Below, one piece after another: positions 4,367-61,501 of a DNA stretch of 64,000 nucleotides (position 1 is the stretch's first letter; every line of letters starts with the position of its first letter). A model generated the notes under the pieces. The model saw only the letters and a program-made list of their open reading frames with translations, was not told where the DNA came from and made no database searches. Location of the stretch: positions 1,466,409-1,530,408 of the forward strand of contig JBNZDD010013726.1 of the NCBI GenBank assembly GCA_050575255.1, read 5' to 3'. Source of the stretch: Harriotta raleighana (lineage: Eukaryota). The position numbers and the translations under genes are program-made.

Positions 4367-7300
4367 CTTGACTCATTGACTGTTTCAATGACTGTTATTC
4401 ATGTGTTAGCCCCTCACTCTGTTGCCAATCCAGTCTTCATCTAATATCATACGCCTTCCTGTCAGGCTTGCTGGAAAGAAACTCGAGTGAAAAAGCAGGA
4501 GTAGGAACTCAGACTCAAATCATCTTCTTCATATTCCAAAGATGCTGAGCACAATTGTAGCAGCTTATATTTGTAGCAATTGCTCCCCTGTCTTAGTTCA
4601 AATCTTTCTGGTCTGTATTGCTCAGCACAGAAAGATTTATTTGCTCTATTAATAGCTCAGTGGATTAGTAATTGGGTCTCCGTGCCTCAGAAGGAAGCAT
4701 TAAAACCTCAGTAATCTTACAATTTCTGTATCGAGGTTGCTTCTCTCCCACATTTATCTCCCCCCATCTACAAATACTTTTATGAACATAAGGAGGCAAC
4801 TGCACCCAACTCCACATCCCACAAAGTCACCTTTTAGTAAAATACTTTGCTCAAAACAACCCCAAGGTTTTGGCCAATTTGCATCGAAAAACATGGGTGG
4901 GTGCAGTATAATTATCACTTGCCAGTCATTAAAAAAAAAATAGTGCAGGGGCCAGTGAAAAGCACAGTTTGTTATTTCAAACCCATTCGCTATCTTTTGA
5001 GCCAGCTGGCTTCTGGCAGCCATGCATGGGCCATTTCTTTCCAATCTTTAGAAACTGCATCAACCATTGATGAGTAAAGCGAACAAAGAGAATGAAACTA
5101 TATAAAATGAGTTGTAGGCTGTGATTTATTCTCAGTGAGCTTGTGTAGCGTCTGTATATTGGCTCAAGTTCATCATCAAGAGTCCCTGGAGTGAAATGTC
5201 AGAATGATTGCTCTCTCCCTCACTTCATTCCTTACAGTATCTTATGTAGTCTGCTACATTCCCCGGTGCATTTTGTTTATACCTATGTGAAACTTTCTGA
5301 TGATGATAGGCAATGAGATTTCATGATTGTCTTTATAGGTCTTAAAAACACTAAAGTGTCTGTAAAGTTCCTTTGTGACTCACTGTAACCATTGTTGACT
5401 TTCTGTTTGTTAAAAGGACAACGTATTGATCAGCCAGTAAAATCAGAGATATTGAGGTCTGAATTTTGTCATTCATCTCTCATTTAATGTAGCTGGAGCA
5501 GGTTTGACTGTTGGATATTGATTTCTGTTTTATATATAAAAAAAAGTAAGTGAAAGGACGCAGGGGAGGAAGGTCAGTATTGCAACAACAGTGGGAAGGT
5601 GTGAGCGATTTGTTCCAATATTTCTGAGGCAATTGATTTTCATAGCTTGTGCTGCACTTTCATTATTGCAATGGAGCATGTTCATTATCACAGACATTTA
5701 TTAGGCAGCCATAAAATTAGTACATCGCCTCTGAATTTAATATGCAGAGCATTGCATTGTCAGCATGGCATGACTCTCATTTAGAGTCCTAAGATTATTA
5801 TTATTATTATTAAGACTTCTTGAGTGACTCCGCCATGAATTGTGCACTGTTTTCATTTCTCCAGTTTATTTCCCTTCCCTCCTGATCTCTAAGGCTTATG
5901 CTGGAATATGGTTCCCCAGGTGCTAACTCACTGGCCTCTGATATCTCATTTGAAATGGCCAATCATTTATAATAATAATAATCCTTGCGTTTGATATTGT
6001 AACTAATCATGCCTTCGAGCCATCTCAAAGAGCTTCACAGAATATTCCATCAAGTGGATTGATTGTATATTTTGCGGGTGAAATCATTATTATATTAATA
6101 ATAATATTCCTTGTGTTTGATGTAGCGCCTTATCACATTGGAATGTGACCACAGCAAGGCTGCCAAATGGTAGTCTTTTCCAACAAAGCTTGCTGAGGAC
6201 AACCTTATTTTAGAGACAGTACAGTAACATGGGGTATGATGGTGCAGTCTCCAGGCTGCATGATTCCCAAGTGTTGCTTTCTACAATTTCCCGTATATCT
6301 TCTTTGCACATAGCTTATCAAACCCCTTTGAAGGATCAAACGTGGGAGGGTAATTCAGGTTTGAGCTACTGGGCATTGCTTACAATCTGCAGTCAGGCTG
6401 CCTTCCTTCCAAATCCCATGGGCACACCCTCCCTCCCTCAAACAACTAGGTCTGTTTCTTCTCAAGCTCAGCAAAGTAATACTTTCAACAGTTTACACTT
6501 CTCCGTACCCCTCCCCCACCCCAACCACACCCTCACCTCACATAGAATGATTTAATCACTGCAAGCCATCTTTCAACTGAATATTCTGTCAGAAATCATG
6601 TCCACAACAATGAGTTGACCTTTTCTGTCTACAAGGAGATCATTAATAATCTGATTATACAAAGCAGCATATAGTCTGAGAAATGGACTGAACACAGACA
6701 CACACACACACATATACACAGAAATAAATGCAAATCTAGAAGAAAAAAAACCATCACAAGCTTATTTAGTTCTATGATGATCACATGCACAGGGAATTTT
6801 TTGCTGAGTGTTTTGAGGGCTTTTAATGCGTGAGGGCAAGTGGCAGACAGCACAGCTTCTAAAATAGGACAGCATCCAAAGACATTGGGATTTTCAAGCT
6901 CCTGAGCTCAGAGCACCCCCCTAACTCAAAGCAAATTTTTGTCCCTTTGGTAAAATTCTACAAAATGTTGAGATGGATCAGCAGAAAGATGTCTTGGAAG
7001 ATGTTGTGATCCCAGAGGGCATTTGTGTTTGTTCACTTTTGACTTTGTGTCAATTCTGAATCCGCTTGAAATCTGATGTAACAATGGGAGAAAAAACAAT
7101 GGGTAACTTTTTTAGTGATGGATCTTTTTACCTATAAACCATGCAGCAATGAAAATGATGAGGAGCAAGTCTAGGACCTGCCTGAATGAAACGTTATTAC
7201 TGTACTGTGAAGTCTTTTATGATTACTTCCGTTTAGCTGCAAGCAAATGTATAACAGTACGAAAATTCAGCAAGACCAAAATGGATTATGTAGCTCGTGT

Positions 7301-18186: not shown

Positions 18187-18777
18187 NNNNNNNNNNNNNN
18201 NNNNNNNNNNNNNNNNNNNNNNNNNNNNNNNNNNNNNNNNNNNNNNNNNNNNNNNNNNNNNNNNNNNNNNNNNNNNNNNNNNNNNNNNNNNNNNNNNNNN
18301 NNNNNNNNNNNNNNNNNNNNNNNNNNNNNNNNNNNNNNNNNNNNNNNNNNNNNNNNNNNNNNNNNNNNNNNNNNNNNNNNNNNNNNNNNNNNNNNNNNNN
18401 NNNNNNNNNNNNNNNNNNNNNNNNNNNNNNNNNNNNNNNNNNNNNNNNNNNNNNNNNNNNNNNNNNNNNNNNNNNNNNNNNNNNNNNNNNNNNNNNNNNN
18501 NNNNNNNNNNNNNNNNNNNNNNNNNNNNNNNNNNNNNNNNNNNNNNNNNNNNNNNNNNNNNNNNNNNNNNNNNNNNNNNNNNNNNNNNNNNNNNNNNNNN
18601 NNNNNNNNNNNNNNNNNNNNNNNNNNNNNNNNNNNNNNNNNNNNNNNNNNNNNNNNNNNNNNNNNNNNNNNNNNNNNNNNNNNNNNNNNNNNNNNNNNNN
18701 NNNNNNNNNNNNNNNNNNNNNNNNNNNNNNNNNNNNNNNNNNNNNNNNNNNNNNNNNNNNNNNCCCCCCCCCCCCCC
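18091..18777. other. Assembly gap (N 18187-18763) flanked by poly-C
   Basis: 96 C, then 577 N, then a C run. Confidence 0.98.
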
Positions 18778-33110: not shown

Positions 33111-33332
33111 GAAGCGACTACAGTGATGTGTTGCCCGAGTCATTCCCGTCGGCCACCGCGGAACCACTGCCTCAATTCCTGGTGGAGCCATCGGACGCCT
33201 ACATTGTGAAAAACAAACCTGTGGTGATGACTTGTACAGCCACTCCAGCCACACAAATCTACTTCAAGTGCAATGGGGACTGGGTGCACCAAAAGGATCA
33301 TGTGACTGAAGAGAATGTGGACCCGATCTCAG
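33111..33332 (+). CDS. unc5b: UNC5B exon 2 (N-terminal part of Ig1): [75 protein letters not shown]
   Basis: Acceptor ttatctgcag|GA at 33110/33111; donor CAG|gtagga at 33332/33333; phase 1-1; overlaps ORF 33128..33400. Confidence 0.96.
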
Positions 33333-38313: not shown

Positions 38314-38457
38314 GACTTGTGGTTCGAGAGGTTCACATTGAGGTCTCACGTCAGCAAGTGGAGGAACTGTTTGGTTTGGAAGATTACTGGTGCCAATGTG
38401 TAGCCTGGAGTGCCTCAGGCACAACAAAAAGCAGGAGAGCCTACGTCCGCATTGCTT
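38314..38457 (+). CDS. unc5b: UNC5B exon 3 (Ig1 C-terminal part): [47 protein letters not shown]
   Basis: Pyrimidine tract ctctctcgtgcag|GA; donor GCTT|gtgcgt; 144 nt, phase 1-1. Confidence 0.96.
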
Positions 38458-40241: not shown

Positions 40242-40345
40242 ACTTGAGGAAGAATTTTGAACAGGAACCGCTTGGAACAGACGTCTCCCTGGAACATGAG
40301 GTGCTGCTACAATGCCGCCCACCAGAAGGGGTCCCACCTGCAGAG
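40242..40345 (+). CDS. unc5b: UNC5B exon 4 (start of Ig2): [35 protein letters not shown]
   Basis: Acceptor atgttccag|AC; donor GAG|gtatgt; 104 nt, phase 1-0. Confidence 0.96.
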
Positions 40346-43300: not shown

Positions 43301-45127
43301 AAGAGCATTTTATGGTAATTAACAACTGGAGCAGATTGCCACAGAGAATAGAACACTGGACTTTAAAAACAATTTGATACTGTGTTTGGAAAACACACAT
43401 CTTGGTCTCTTTCTCTCCCTCCCTCCTTCTCTCCCTTCCTCCCCTTTGCTTCTCTCCTGTTTTACTTTCTCTTAGCTTCCCACTATTCCTGACCACTATC
43501 CTAATTCTTCAAAATGTGTGTCACATAAAGGCATAATAGGCAATGAAATTCTCTTTAAGAATTTACTTGATGTGTCTTTCAGAGATAATCTATCTGATCA
43601 TTTTAGTTGTTCATAGCCACAGTACAACTCACTATGTGAATTCCTGAACCTTGAGCAGTTTCCAGCTATCCAGTTTGACATGGTTAATGAATGCACAGAT
43701 AATCCCTCACAATAGGGCCTTTGAAATGCCACTGTCTCTGGTTTAACAGGCTTTATTTGTGCCTCCCTGTCTATTAAAGGCGTCATATTAAGTCTACGCC
43801 TCTAACCTCTGAAAGTCTCTGTCTCTATCTTCCTCCACCTTATCCTTTCCATCTATCCTCCGCTCACCTCCGCTTTCTCTCTCACTTCCTCTCTCACTTC
43901 CCCTTCCTCTCTCACCTCCTCTTCCAACCCCACCTGTGTGAAACATTCAGACATTATCCTACATAAAAGGCATAAATGAAAGTTGTTGTCTACTTTTCCA
44001 GACAGCACTCACTGTAAATGTTTAATGTTTGCCTCCAGAGACACATAAGAGATACGTAAAGTTTAGATTAAAACATCAGGGTGCACAAGAGGTAAATTCT
44101 GAAGAACCAAAGCCTCTGTGTGTGAATACAACTGTGTGCCACTGCAGATGTAGCCAATTTATTATAATACATTTTAATAGCAAATCAATATCGCAGGAGA
44201 TTAAGAAAATAACTCTTGAGGTCGGGCCAATTAATCACTGAACACTTGCAACTGTGTGTGGGGAGAAAAGGAACAAATTAATTAGAAATGCAGTAAAACT
44301 AATGATAATAAAAATTTGCTCACTGAACCAGTTCGCTTGGTTGTGGATTAAATGATTCAATGTCCTTCACAGATTAAATTGCATGCTTCACTGGAGCTGG
44401 ATCTGACAACTGAGACTAGGCAGCCAGCAGCTAATATTTTTTGATACAGATGGATTTTGAATTCATACTTTTATAATTCTATTGATTAAATAATTTGGGA
44501 CAGAAAAAGGGAAGAGAATTGAAATAAAGTTTGTAACATGAGAATAGCTATTTAACAAGTCTTAACCAGATTGTGATGAAGTAGCGTCTCTGAGTGTGTA
44601 TTGCTGGAAGATCCCATCTGCAGTGAACTGTTAACGGTTCAGAGGTAACGTAAACTCCTTCTTCACAAAAAGAAAAACAAACATGACATTATTGAGTGAG
44701 TGCTAAGCACTCTCCATCTTACAATTCATCCTTTTACTTTGACTCGTTTCCGCTCCTTAAACTGTGGCACACAAGCCATCAAATCTTCCTTTACCTCAGC
44801 GTCCCCCAATTGATGAAGTCTTTCTGCATGGCAACCTGTGGCAATTAGTCTCACTAATGGGAAATAAGTGCACTAATTATGCAAATCTCTCTCTTAATAC
44901 CTGGAGGCTTTTGTGACTCAACCGAACCATATCTGTTTTTGAATTCTAACTATCTTCATTTTATTCATTCACAAGTTCGCACATTAGTTTTAATATTTCA
45001 AAGATTTTTTTTTGCTGTCCAAGAATAATTGAAGCACAATGGCATCTTGAAGGATACTTGCGTTTAATCGCACTCTCTTTCCACTTGCGCCCCCACCACT
45101 TTCCCCCCAATCCCCCATTTCATTTAG

Positions 45128-45308
45128 GTGGAATGGCTGAAGAATGAAGATATTATCAACTCAGTTCAAGACTCCAACTTCCTCATCACCATTGACCATA
45201 ATCTGATCATCAAACAAGCTCGCCTGTCAGACACAGCAAACTACACCTGTGTGGCTAAGAACATTGTTGCCAAGCGGCGGAGTACCACTGCCACAGTGCT
45301 TGTATACG
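45128..45308 (+). CDS. unc5b: UNC5B exon 5 (Ig2): [60 protein letters not shown]
   Basis: Acceptor catttag|GTG; donor TACG|gtaaga; 181 nt, phase 0-1. Confidence 0.97.
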
Positions 45309-45346: not shown

Positions 45347-46133
45347 ATAATAAGAATAATCCTTGCATTTGATGTACAGTAAAAGCCCGTTTATCTGTGA
45401 CTCGATCAACCAGAACTTCCGTATAACCAGAACGTCAAAAAAAAAAAGTCCCCACCCAATTAACCAGAAGTTATCCGGCACAATAGCGGTGGCGCATTTA
45501 ATGGATCAATTATTGCACGAGAGTACTGTACAGGTATTTCAGCTTGCCATTAGTAGAGCCTCAAACTGGCGCTGCTGTTTTTTTTCCTCCCATGGCGGCC
45601 GCCATTGCAGAAGTTAAGTATAAATAATAAAGTACCAATACAATATTCTGTTATTACAATATCTGTTATTACTATATTTAGTCTATTATTTATATGGTAC
45701 ATTGTATTTACATTTATAATAAAGTACCATTAAAATATTCTGTTATTACAGTATCTGTTTTTTTTTGCATTGGGTTTTCGGCGTTGGATCCGGCCATTTA
45801 ACCGGCAAGACGTTTAACCGGCATTGGCCAGGTCCCGCGGGTGTCAGATAAACAGGCTTTTACTGTAGCACTTTTTATGTCATCTGGAAGTCTCAAAGAG
45901 CTTCACAGAAAATATTGTGAAGTAAATTAATATGTGGGCGAAACATGGCAGCCAATTGTGCACAGCAGTGTCCCACAAACAGTTGTGAATTGAAATTAAC
46001 AAATTTTATAAGGGATTATTATCAGGGGTGTGGAGTAAAGGAAACTTGCCCAAGGTTTCACCCTGTCCTGGAATCGAACCCAGGACTCTCACTTGTAAGA
46101 CGAGTGCTCTTAACCACTGAGCTGCAGGACTCC
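45347..46133 (-). mobile_element. Full-length tRNA-derived SINE interrupted by a MITE
   Basis: Minus-strand head ggagtcctgcagctcagtggttaagagcactcgtcttacaagtgagagtcctgggttcgattccag (A and B boxes). The tail ccttgcatttgatgTA..TAgcactttt is split at a TA. Confidence 0.9.
45377..45865 (-). mobile_element. Tigger/pogo-like MITE, family A, reverse orientation
   Basis: TA|CAGTAAAAGCCCGTTTATCTG ... CAGATAAACAGGCTTTTACTG|TA; interior is the reverse complement of 19328-19879 and 34364-34970. Confidence 0.92.
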
Positions 46134-48900: not shown

Positions 48901-49068
48901 TAAATGGTGGATGGTCCACTTGGACAGAATGGACTACATGTAGCAACCGCTGTGGCCGAGGCTGGCAGAAGCGTACAAGAACATGTACCAACCCAGCCCC
49001 ACTCAATGGTGGGGCCTTCTGTGATGGACAAACATCCCAGAGGATTTCCTGCAGCACTATGTGCCCAG
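48901..49068 (+). CDS. unc5b: UNC5B exon 6 (TSP1 repeat 1): [56 protein letters not shown]
   Basis: Acceptor tttcccacag|TA; donor CCAG|gtgagt; 168 nt, phase 1-1; WxxWxxW and CxxxCG motifs. Translated by hand because the ORF track shows other frames here. Confidence 0.96.
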
Positions 49069-50815: not shown

Positions 50816-50980
50816 TTGATGGTGGCTGGACAGATTGGAGCAAATGGTCGGCTTGCAGCACAGAGTGCACCCACTGGAGAAGCCGCAAGTGCGCGGCACC
50901 ATCCCCCAGAAACGGAGGCAGAGACTGCTCCGGTCTAGTGCTGGTGTCCAAAAACTGCACAGATGGGCTCTGTATGCAGA
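50816..50980 (+). CDS. unc5b: UNC5B exon 7 (TSP1 repeat 2): [55 protein letters not shown]
   Basis: Acceptor aaaatgcag|TT; donor CAGA|gtaagt; 165 nt, phase 1-1. Confidence 0.96.
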
Positions 50981-52007: not shown

Positions 52008-52560
52008 CAGTAAAACCTCGTTTATCCGGCACGCTCGGGGGGGGGGGGGGGGGGNNNNNNNNNNNNNNNNNNNNNNNNNNNNNNNNNNNNNNNNNNNNNN
52101 NNNNNNNNNNNNNNNNNNNNNNNNNNNNNNNNNNNNNNNNNNNNNNNNNNNNNNNNNNNNNNNNNNNNNNNNNNNNNNNNNNNNNNNNNNNNNNNNNNNN
52201 NNNNNNNNNNNNNNNNNNNNNNNNNNNNNNNNNNNNNNNNNNNNNNNNNNNNNNNNNNNNNNNNNNNNNNNNNNNNNNNNNNNNNNNNNNNNNNNNNNNN
52301 NNNNNNNNNNNNNNNNNNNNNNNNNNNNNNNNNNNNNNNNNNNNNNNNNNNNNNNNNNNNNNNNNNNNNNNNNNNNNNNNNNNNNNNNNNNNNNNNNNNN
52401 NNNNNNNNNNNNNNNNNNNNNNNNNNNNNNNNNNNNNNNNNNNNNNNNNNNNNNNNNNNNNNNNNNNNNNNNNNNNNNNNNNNNNNNNNNNNNNNNNNNN
52501 NNNNNNNNNNNNNNNNNNNNGTTATGGTTGATCGGGTCACGGATGAACGAGGTTTTACTG
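52008..52560 (+). mobile_element. Tigger/pogo-like MITE family A spanning the second assembly gap (N 52055-52520)
   Basis: Left TIR cagtaaaacctcgtttatccggcac before the gap; right TIR ggatgaacgaggttttactg|ta after it. Confidence 0.85.
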
Positions 52561-55213: not shown

Positions 55214-55668
55214 TTTCTGCTTTAATCTAAAAGCCTCTCTCTGATATATAAAGGAAACCTCCACAAAGTAAAGACAGAAGCATGAACCTGTGCCCCTTTA
55301 TTCCATGTTTTGAAATTGTAGTTATATTACTTGGGTATCAGGCAGCAGGAATAAGATCTCAGAGTTAAGGTAAGAATAATAAGAGTAGTCAGGTAAGAGT
55401 AAAGCCTTCCTAGTGAAGAATTAGCACAACTAAGAGCATTATTCCTCTAATTTGTTTAACATTCTTCCAACCATTTTCTCATGATATAAAGGTATGGATG
55501 TTGAATTCAGAGTGTGTACGTGTGGTTGTGTTTTGGGTAAGATTAAGTGGTGTATGTCCAATTTATTTTCCTTTGCAAGTTTTATTTCTGTGTACATTTA
55601 GCATCTACAGTTCATTTCATTTTCATTATCTTTTTCATGCTGAGTTTATTTTCGTTCTTTTTTAACAG

Positions 55669-55701
55669 ATGAAAAGCTTTTAAATGAACCAACAAGTACT
55701 A
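55669..55701 (+). CDS. unc5b: UNC5B exon 8, 33-nt alternative microexon: NEKLLNEPTST
   Basis: T-rich tract ttcgttctttttttaacag|AT and consensus donor A|gtaagt; 33 nt, phase 1-1, no stop. Size and position match human exon 8 (NKKTLSDPNSH). Not in the ORF track. Confidence 0.88.
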
Positions 55702-56473
55702 GTAAGTTTTCATTTCATTATTTTTAATTCATTTTTGGATGTGAAAGTGGTGTACAATAATCATTCATTATGAGACACTGCTGTTTGTACAGCCATGGAT
55801 CTGAGTGGTGAAAGTATCTTGTCTTAACCTAAGCAACATGTGTCATGTTTTCTTTTGGTTAGCTGGGTGTCTGACACATGCGGAAACACATCACTATGCT
55901 CAAGAGTATCCACACCAGATACACTAACACATACACATACCACCACTACGTGGAAATCCCAGTTTCTGGAAAGCAATGCCATCCCTGCAACAAGAACAAC
56001 AACTTGCATTTATATAGCACCCTTCACGCCGGGCAGCGTCTCGGAGTGCTTAAACGCAACCTGCTTACTTAATTCTGGAAAGAAAGTATCAGGTACATGA
56101 TGGTGAGAGACAAGGCTTGGAGATCTTAAAGTGTGCTGTGGGTTCCCTCAGGGGTTTAACAAGCCAAGCACATCACCTGAGAACCAAGCAGACCCTGCTT
56201 ACCTTCTTCCTCTCCCAGGAAGATAAACACAAGATATTGATTTGATATTCAACAAGAGCAGGATTGAGCTATCCCCATGTGGATGGCAGATTCCAGGAAC
56301 TCTCTGCGAGCCTCTTGGTGAACAACAGAACTCAGCATCCACATAAGAGGGTGAGAAGTTCTCACTGTAAATGTCTTGCATCCCGTTGACACCTTTCACA
56401 TCCTGTTGTTGTGCTGACTCATTTTGAAGTGAGACGATGAGATTTCATGCCCAGTTTGAAATATGTTGATGTA

Positions 56474-57583: not shown

Positions 57584-57778
57584 CTATAGAGGCAACTGCC
57601 GATGTGGCTCTGTACGCAGGTCTAGTTGTGGCTGTGTTCATCTTCGTAATTATTTTGCTTGTGGTTGGCATCATCGTGTACAAGAGGAGCTGTCGCGACT
57701 TCGACACGGACATCACAGACTCCTCCGCAGCTCTGACTGGAGGCTTTCAGCCTGTGAACTTCAAGACTGCCAGGCACG
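57584..57778 (+). CDS. unc5b: UNC5B exon 9 (transmembrane + juxtamembrane, caspase site DITD): TIEATADVALYAGLVVAVFIFVIILLVVGIIVYKRSCRDFDTDITDSSAALTGGFQPVNFKTARH
   Basis: Acceptor tttttttcag|CT; donor CACG|gtaagt; 195 nt, phase 1-1; hydrophobic TM; DITD codons at 57709-57720. Confidence 0.97.
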
Positions 57779-61117: not shown

Positions 61118-61501
61118 ATCATCCTCAGTTGCTCAATTCCTCTATGCAACCAGATCTGACAGCCAGTGCTGGCTCTTATCGAGGACCTATGTACACTCTT
61201 CAGGACACAGCTGACAAGATACCAATGACAAACTCTCCACTACTTGACCCATTGCCAAACCTGAAGATTAAAGTATATAATTCTTCAACAACCACTGCTG
61301 GATTGACAGACGGAATTGATCATCCTGGGAAGACACCATTGGGTACTTACCCAGGAGGAAACATTAGGGACAATAATGTTATGAACATGAGGAACAAAGC
61401 GCTCAGCTCTCAGCATCTGAACACACTGCCCAGGGAGCCCGGGAACAGTGCGAGTGGAACCTTCGGTTGTTTGGGTGGTCGCCTCACAGTGCTTAATTCA
61501 G
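61118..61501 (+). CDS. unc5b: UNC5B exon 10 (cytoplasmic linker to start of ZU5): DHPQLLNSSMQPDLTASAGSYRGPMY...DKIPMTNSPLLDPLPNLKIKVYNSS...SASGTFGCLGGRLTVLNSG
   Basis: Acceptor tttttccctttacag|AT; donor TCAG|gtttgt; 384 nt, phase 1-1; overlaps ORF 61129..61548. Confidence 0.96.

Follow-up and report, generated by a model that had tools for sequence, protein, structure and literature searches.

The closest described system is the splicing switch of UNC5B exon 8 (UNC5B-delta8; VastDB HsaEX0069379, MmuEX0050632 and GgaEX0006169), which earlier work documented in human, mouse, chicken and zebrafish (PMC8358048). According to the accessible portions of that study, NOVA2 crosslinks to a cluster in intron 7 of mouse UNC5B (CLIP), mutation of the upstream YCAY motifs in a mouse minigene leads to less skipping, loss of nova2 in zebrafish increases inclusion of the exon, and the skipped UNC5B form is netrin-insensitive and pro-apoptotic; the NOVA2 biology cited in the initial annotation of the locus analysed here agrees with these portions. 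According to the text of the same paper, the upstream cluster is found at the orthologous position in zebrafish, mouse and human; a cluster is defined there as a 45-nt stretch of the upstream intron with more than three YCAY. In the part of a NOVA RNA map that was available (PMC4054596), regions r1 and r3 span positions −35..−5 and +10..+40, respectively, with r3 assigned to enhancement, and it is as TCAT clusters that the motifs are enriched in front of exons silenced by NOVA. Shedding of the receptor depends on the same exon: as described in the available part of PMC12480741, a cut at Asn361-Asp362, encoded by exon 8, sheds the long form of mouse UNC5B but not the short one, and O-glycans are unfavourable to shedding. 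In the literature within our scope, which excluded most subscription journals and splicing databases, there is no report of the switch in cartilaginous fish, of the element at +9 described below or of a comparison with UNC5D.

We analysed a 64-kb stretch of the Harriotta raleighana genome (hereinafter, the window), which contains most of the UNC5B gene on the plus strand. The host gene is identified by exon 9 (57584..57778), which encodes the transmembrane (TM) segment and is identical to Callorhinchus milii UNC5B in 64 of 64 residues (100%), so that the chondrichthyan origin on which the initial annotation had made its proposal conditional is borne out. Exon 7 (50816..50980), encoding the second TSP1 repeat (TSP1-2), has AG/GT ends and a phase 1 donor, and is 95% identical to C. 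milii UNC5B in the tblastn alignment. The remaining coding exons located in the window are exon 2 (33111-33332), exon 3 (38314-38457), exon 4 (40242-40345), exon 5 (45128-45308), exon 6 (48901-49068) and exon 10 (61118..61501), all on the plus strand; identity of the other UNC5B exons to C. milii is 92–100% where the alignment covers the exon only, which points to a holocephalan related to, but probably distinct from, that species. Two assembly gaps, 18187-18763 and 52055-52520, adjoin homopolymer runs, and the latter (466 bases) falls within intron 7. On the minus strand, at 46061-46128, there is a weak Rfam tRNA match (33.7 bits) that is not called by ARAGORN and is probably a tRNA-derived repeat.

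Between the TSP1-2 and TM exons lies exon 8 (55669..55701, plus strand), a 33-nt, phase 1-1 exon bounded by AG and GT. It is preceded by a T-rich pyrimidine tract and 3′ splice site (55639..55668) ending in TTAACAG, and followed by the 5′ splice site GTAAGT (55702..55707). When the final nucleotide of exon 7 (50980) is included, it encodes an 11-residue juxtamembrane stalk, NEKLLNEPTST, in frame into exon 9; direct joining of exon 7 to exon 9 is likewise frame-preserving. Whether an exon of 33 nt is called a microexon depends on the cut-off used. The boundaries, length and phase thus conform to the initial annotation, as does the absence of the exon from the ORF track with respect to ORF calling, but the exon is not new to databases, being included in the C. 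milii RefSeq protein XP_007896056.1.

The exon peptide matches that of RefSeq C. milii UNC5B in 10 of 11 residues, that of a shark in 8 and those of human and mouse in 5, whereas its length is fixed; the earlier description of the peptide as diverged was therefore overstated, all the more so as Asn-Asp-Pro of the mouse shedding site aligns with Asn-Glu-Pro in the chimaera. Both included and skipped RefSeq isoforms, all of them gene models, are found for Pristis pectinata and Stegostoma tigrinum (among the 15 of 58 cluster members listed). More broadly, the linker between the TSP1 and TM regions could be parsed in 92 of 130 proteins retrieved with UNC5B, yielding 51 long, 24 short and 17 linkers of other lengths. 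The C. milii model P0002 provides weak evidence of skipping, because unusual linkers are seen in this region in six further UniRef models of the species.

The presumptive trans-acting factors are encoded in the same genome. A search for KH domains produced 47 matches, and two loci (G000:C13687 and G000:C4990) encode the KH2-KH3 portion of NOVA, with Nova-1/Nova-2 KH domains as the best PDB matches (E-values of 1e-37 to 1e-52). The KH2 and KH3 domains of these two NOVA genes are near-identical.

Ten YCAY motifs surround exon 8, exactly where they had initially been annotated. The four upstream motifs (−57, −52, −46 and −34; 55612..55638) are all TCAT and constitute a predicted NOVA silencer; the six downstream comprise those at +9 and +14, within TCATTTCAT at +9..+17 (55710..55718), a predicted second NOVA site, and further motifs at +28, +60, +64 and +92 (55729..55796). 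Across the window, the mean is 3.06 YCAY per 185 nt; over a dinucleotide-matched background, the excess at exon 8 is about twofold rather than the threefold first proposed. At least ten YCAY occur in 0.24% of 185-nt segments, which correspond to five places including the exon 8 site. Dinucleotide shuffling gave P = 0.002 for the interval 55600-55800, which was picked post hoc. For exon 8 with 100 nt on either side, P was 0.019, and for the downstream 100 nt alone it was 0.011; for the upstream 100 nt alone, by contrast, P was 0.55, and the upstream cluster by itself was not significant in such shuffles (P = 0.11–0.55 and 0.15). Ten YCAY summed over both 100-nt flanks also occur at 2 of 25 other UNC5-family exons of the genome, and 3 of these 25, the boundaries of which were snapped automatically, equal or exceed the upstream Jelen cluster sum of exon 8, which is 14. 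Hence the YCAY count alone is insufficient evidence, being only mildly unusual.

TCAT is more distinctive than YCAY at large. Nine copies within 160 nt at exon 8 form the single peak of the window, no other place reaching eight, and the only triple of TCAT separated by 0–2 nt in the window, both strands counted, is located here. None of the 25 other UNC5-family exons has more than two TCAT per side, and four copies were found upstream of none of 104 T-rich acceptor-like sites and downstream of none of 505 GTRAG sites, although some of these background loci overlap one another. The TCAT subset was chosen after the motifs had been seen, yet the enrichment of this form upstream of NOVA-silenced exons is given independently in the available part of PMC4054596. 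UNC5B exon 5 has YCAY clusters both in its upstream flank and within it (45079-45230; Jelen sums of 14 and 22) that match the strength of that at exon 8, and a QKI-type ACTAAC is present at +222 (55923-55928). Rfam has no match at the exon 8 site.

Base composition and repeat structure raise the question of whether the motifs arose by chance, that is, through slippage of a TTCATT repeat in AT-rich flanks, with no regulatory role in this lineage. The flanks have a GC content of 23–31%, and Tandem Repeats Finder describes 55611-55638 as a weak, degenerate 6-mer tandem repeat (score 35–42), which, together with the non-significant shuffles of the upstream cluster and the two among 25 other exons with comparable numbers of YCAY, fits such an origin. 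We nevertheless regard it as most improbable, given that it leaves unexplained the agreement of the cluster in position with that tested in mouse and that observed in zebrafish (PMC8358048, in the portions available), as well as two features of an orthologous intron. A pattern scan of metagenome contigs, in which only YAG, the coding positions and GTRAG were fixed, returned a single match, L011, which we term sauropsid-like because its exon peptide equals that of owl, sandpiper and turtle UNC5B; conservation is thus judged from one ortholog intron, the orthology of which is based on an 11-residue peptide. Upstream of the L011 exon there are six YCAY (−67..−33; shuffle P = 0.006), in a cluster that shares its position with that of the chimaera but has different spacers, and conserved YCAY clusters are described as keeping position but not spacers in the accessible part of PMC2014790. 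Downstream, where the motif letters are best conserved, TCATTTCAT occurs at +9..+17 with sequence and offset identical to those in H. raleighana; such a 9-nt run at the same offset has P = 0.0008 by shuffling and is shared with none of 471 other GTRAG sites. YCAY at +20 and +68 of L011 are looser counterparts of the further downstream motifs, and the last six nucleotides of the acceptor, TAACAG, are common to the chimaera exon, L011 and UNC5D. A pattern of a short stretch bounded by AG, a donor and tandem TCAT at +9 had only 50 matches in 1.1 Gb, which again speaks against chance; the reversed control of this genome-wide pattern gave 104 matches, indicating neither enrichment nor a family of such exons. 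As the exon and the motifs are positionally common to the chimaera and the sauropsid-like ortholog, they likely predate the split between bony and cartilaginous fishes, as originally suggested.

The distribution of motifs over the two flanks bears on the direction of regulation. The upstream set of four YCAY within 27 nt satisfies the cluster definition of PMC8358048 and lies on the side that was mutated in mouse; most of it is located 5′ of r1 (−35..−5) as delimited in the available part of PMC4054596. Against NOVA-dependent skipping, four YCAY in 45 nt occur in 8% of all 200-nt segments of the window, and the downstream flank, in which NOVA binding usually favours inclusion, has six of the ten motifs, so that this part of the proposed code is predicted to have the opposite effect. 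An unlikely alternative is a two-sided switch, in which both flanks are bound by NOVA; the sites 3′ of the exon would either counteract the upstream silencer, with net inclusion or a response that depends on NOVA dose in this fish, or act jointly with it to loop out the exon. The exact conservation of TCATTTCAT at +9..+17 is compatible with such a switch, as are the assignment of r3 to enhancement, the cluster height of 12 in r3, a value that only 0.47% of window positions reach for YCAY, and the mouse CLIP signal in intron 8 (amplicon B), which was seen in two of three replicates at about 5–10% of that of the upstream amplicon and was remarked on by a reviewer (PMC8358048, available portions). 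However, the downstream motifs fall short of more than three in 45 nt in both species (three here and three in L011), and mutating the upstream sites alone cut skipping in mouse, where the +9 element is not among the sites mutated according to the accessible part of PMC8358048. The downstream Jelen sum is also only 4 (score 0.6), compared to 14 upstream (1.15), the logarithm being assumed to be to base 10; this difference in scores would predict net silencing, whereas cluster height is lower in r1 (9) than in r3 (12).

The same flanks contain words that factors other than NOVA may recognize. Each of the four upstream TCAT follows a T and conforms to the branch-point-like consensus yUnAy, the downstream flank has a GC content of 23%, TTTA/TTAT tetramers in that position are a mark of TIA-enhanced exons (PMC4054596, as far as available), and TGC occurs at −31 in this UNC5B intron and at −25 in UNC5D. 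The exon could accordingly be governed by core splicing or another protein, namely, through redundant UUCAU branch points, a TIA/ELAV-type U-rich site 3′ of the donor or SRRM3/4 acting via the UGC at −31, but we consider this very unlikely: yUnAy accommodates only three of the six upstream YCAY of L011, which has a separate CTAAC at −19 and lacks TGC within 70 nt of the acceptor, and the mouse and zebrafish genetics in the accessible portions of PMC8358048 name NOVA2. Two further candidates were rejected. RNA structure was discarded as a mechanism since neither flank folds better than its shuffled counterparts (z = −0.35 and −0.95), and RBFOX since there is no GCATG within 300 nt of exon 8 and its knockdown is described as having no effect in mouse cells in the part of PMC8358048 that was available.

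Overall, we favour, with a probability of roughly 0.7, the reading that exon 8 of this gene is a further instance, in a new lineage, of the silencing by NOVA2 already described, a switch maintained from the jawed-vertebrate ancestor onwards. Under this scenario, NOVA proteins of the chimaera-like fish likely bind the upstream UCAU cluster and cause skipping of UNC5B exon 8. NOVA bound at −57..−31 would cover the likely branch-point region and keep the 3′ splice site from being recognized where NOVA is abundant (endothelium and neurons), with the conserved UCAUUUCAU at +9..+17 possibly serving as a second, weaker site that tunes the outcome. The 11 residues lost on skipping would be the stalk that separates the membrane from the second TSP1 repeat and, judging from mouse, carries the metalloprotease cut site, and the resulting short receptor is expected, by the same analogy, to be shedding-resistant, netrin-insensitive and pro-apoptotic.

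To place the exon in the UNC5 family, we compared it with the three further UNC5 genes of the genome (56–58% identity). UNC5D has a 33-nt, phase 1-1 exon in the same place (L005:8367-8399, G000:C13486), with the same ends, TAACAG and GTAAGT, a purine-rich GA repeat 3′ of the donor and no YCAY in the 100 nt on either side. This exon is present in C. milii RefSeq UNC5D and is both included and skipped in mammalian proteins. In UNC5C, a 57-nt exon (L007:5691-5747, G000:C13625) with one YCAY nearby matches a 19-residue insert of database UNC5C proteins and may be a lengthened version of one common ancestral exon. It holds an inner AG with a pyrimidine tract that would leave exactly 33 nt (5715-5747), a splice site used by no database protein examined. 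An AG..GT scan found no matching exon in the third paralog, for which the name UNC5A-like follows a marginal PDB ranking. Local duplications of exon pieces in UNC5A-like (L009:1725-1841 and 2035-2151) and in UNC5D (L004, just before the TM exon) may be assembly artefacts. Because UNC5D also has the 33-nt exon, the exon is probably older than initially proposed: judging from these comparisons, it probably predates the paralog split and its own NOVA code, and the YCAY code would belong to UNC5B, although YCAY could instead have been lost from UNC5D of this fish. More tentatively, the stalk exon may already have been skippable prior to the separation of the vertebrate UNC5 paralogs, with NOVA control later wired onto that of UNC5B only, ahead of the divergence of cartilaginous and bony fishes, in a two-sided code whose best-preserved element, UCAUUUCAU at +9..+17, would be a candidate second NOVA site setting the level of the sheddable, netrin-responsive receptor.

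If correct, the main reading would place the origin of a vascular and neural switch in splicing in the jawed-vertebrate ancestor, one node deeper than the zebrafish evidence, and it names a 9-nt element by the donor that is open to mutation in the available mouse minigene. The UNC5D exon, having the same length and splice ends and no YCAY cluster in this genome, offers a natural control. Given that the core biology has already been published, these results refine rather than change the picture.

Compared to the published UNC5B-delta8 switch, as far as the available portions of the study describe it, the chimaera locus has the same gene, a 33-nt exon between the TSP1-2 and TM exons, an upstream YCAY cluster and NOVA genes in the genome, but it belongs to a cartilaginous fish, outside the species named there, and has more motifs downstream than upstream. 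The short, frame-preserving exon with a strong GTAAGT donor and an upstream UGC also resembles the neural microexons controlled by SRRM3/4, as portrayed in the accessible part of 10.1101/2024.09.17.613571; for such exons, UGC is not strictly required. By contrast, the UGC here is far from the acceptor (−31) and is absent near that of L011, and mouse exon 8 is skipped where its regulator is high. With the isoform-dependent shedding of mouse UNC5B (PMC12480741, available part), the locus shares the exon length and the Asn-acidic-Pro at the cut site, the second position being Glu or Asp in 31 of 31 distinct peptides and the third being Pro in 24 of them. Beyond the site, the residues differ: the stalk end (55693-55701 and 57584-57585) is Thr-Ser-Thr-Thr in holocephalans and Lys-Ser-His in mouse and most tetrapods, and since O-glycans are named as unfavourable, O-glycosylation of this stretch may alter shedding here. 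Within the family, the UNC5D 33-nt and UNC5C 57-nt juxtamembrane cassette exons are similar to UNC5B exon 8 in position, phase and the occurrence of both included and skipped forms among database proteins, whereas the YCAY motifs around them, none within 100 nt in UNC5D and one nearby in UNC5C, set them apart from UNC5B exon 8 in this genome.
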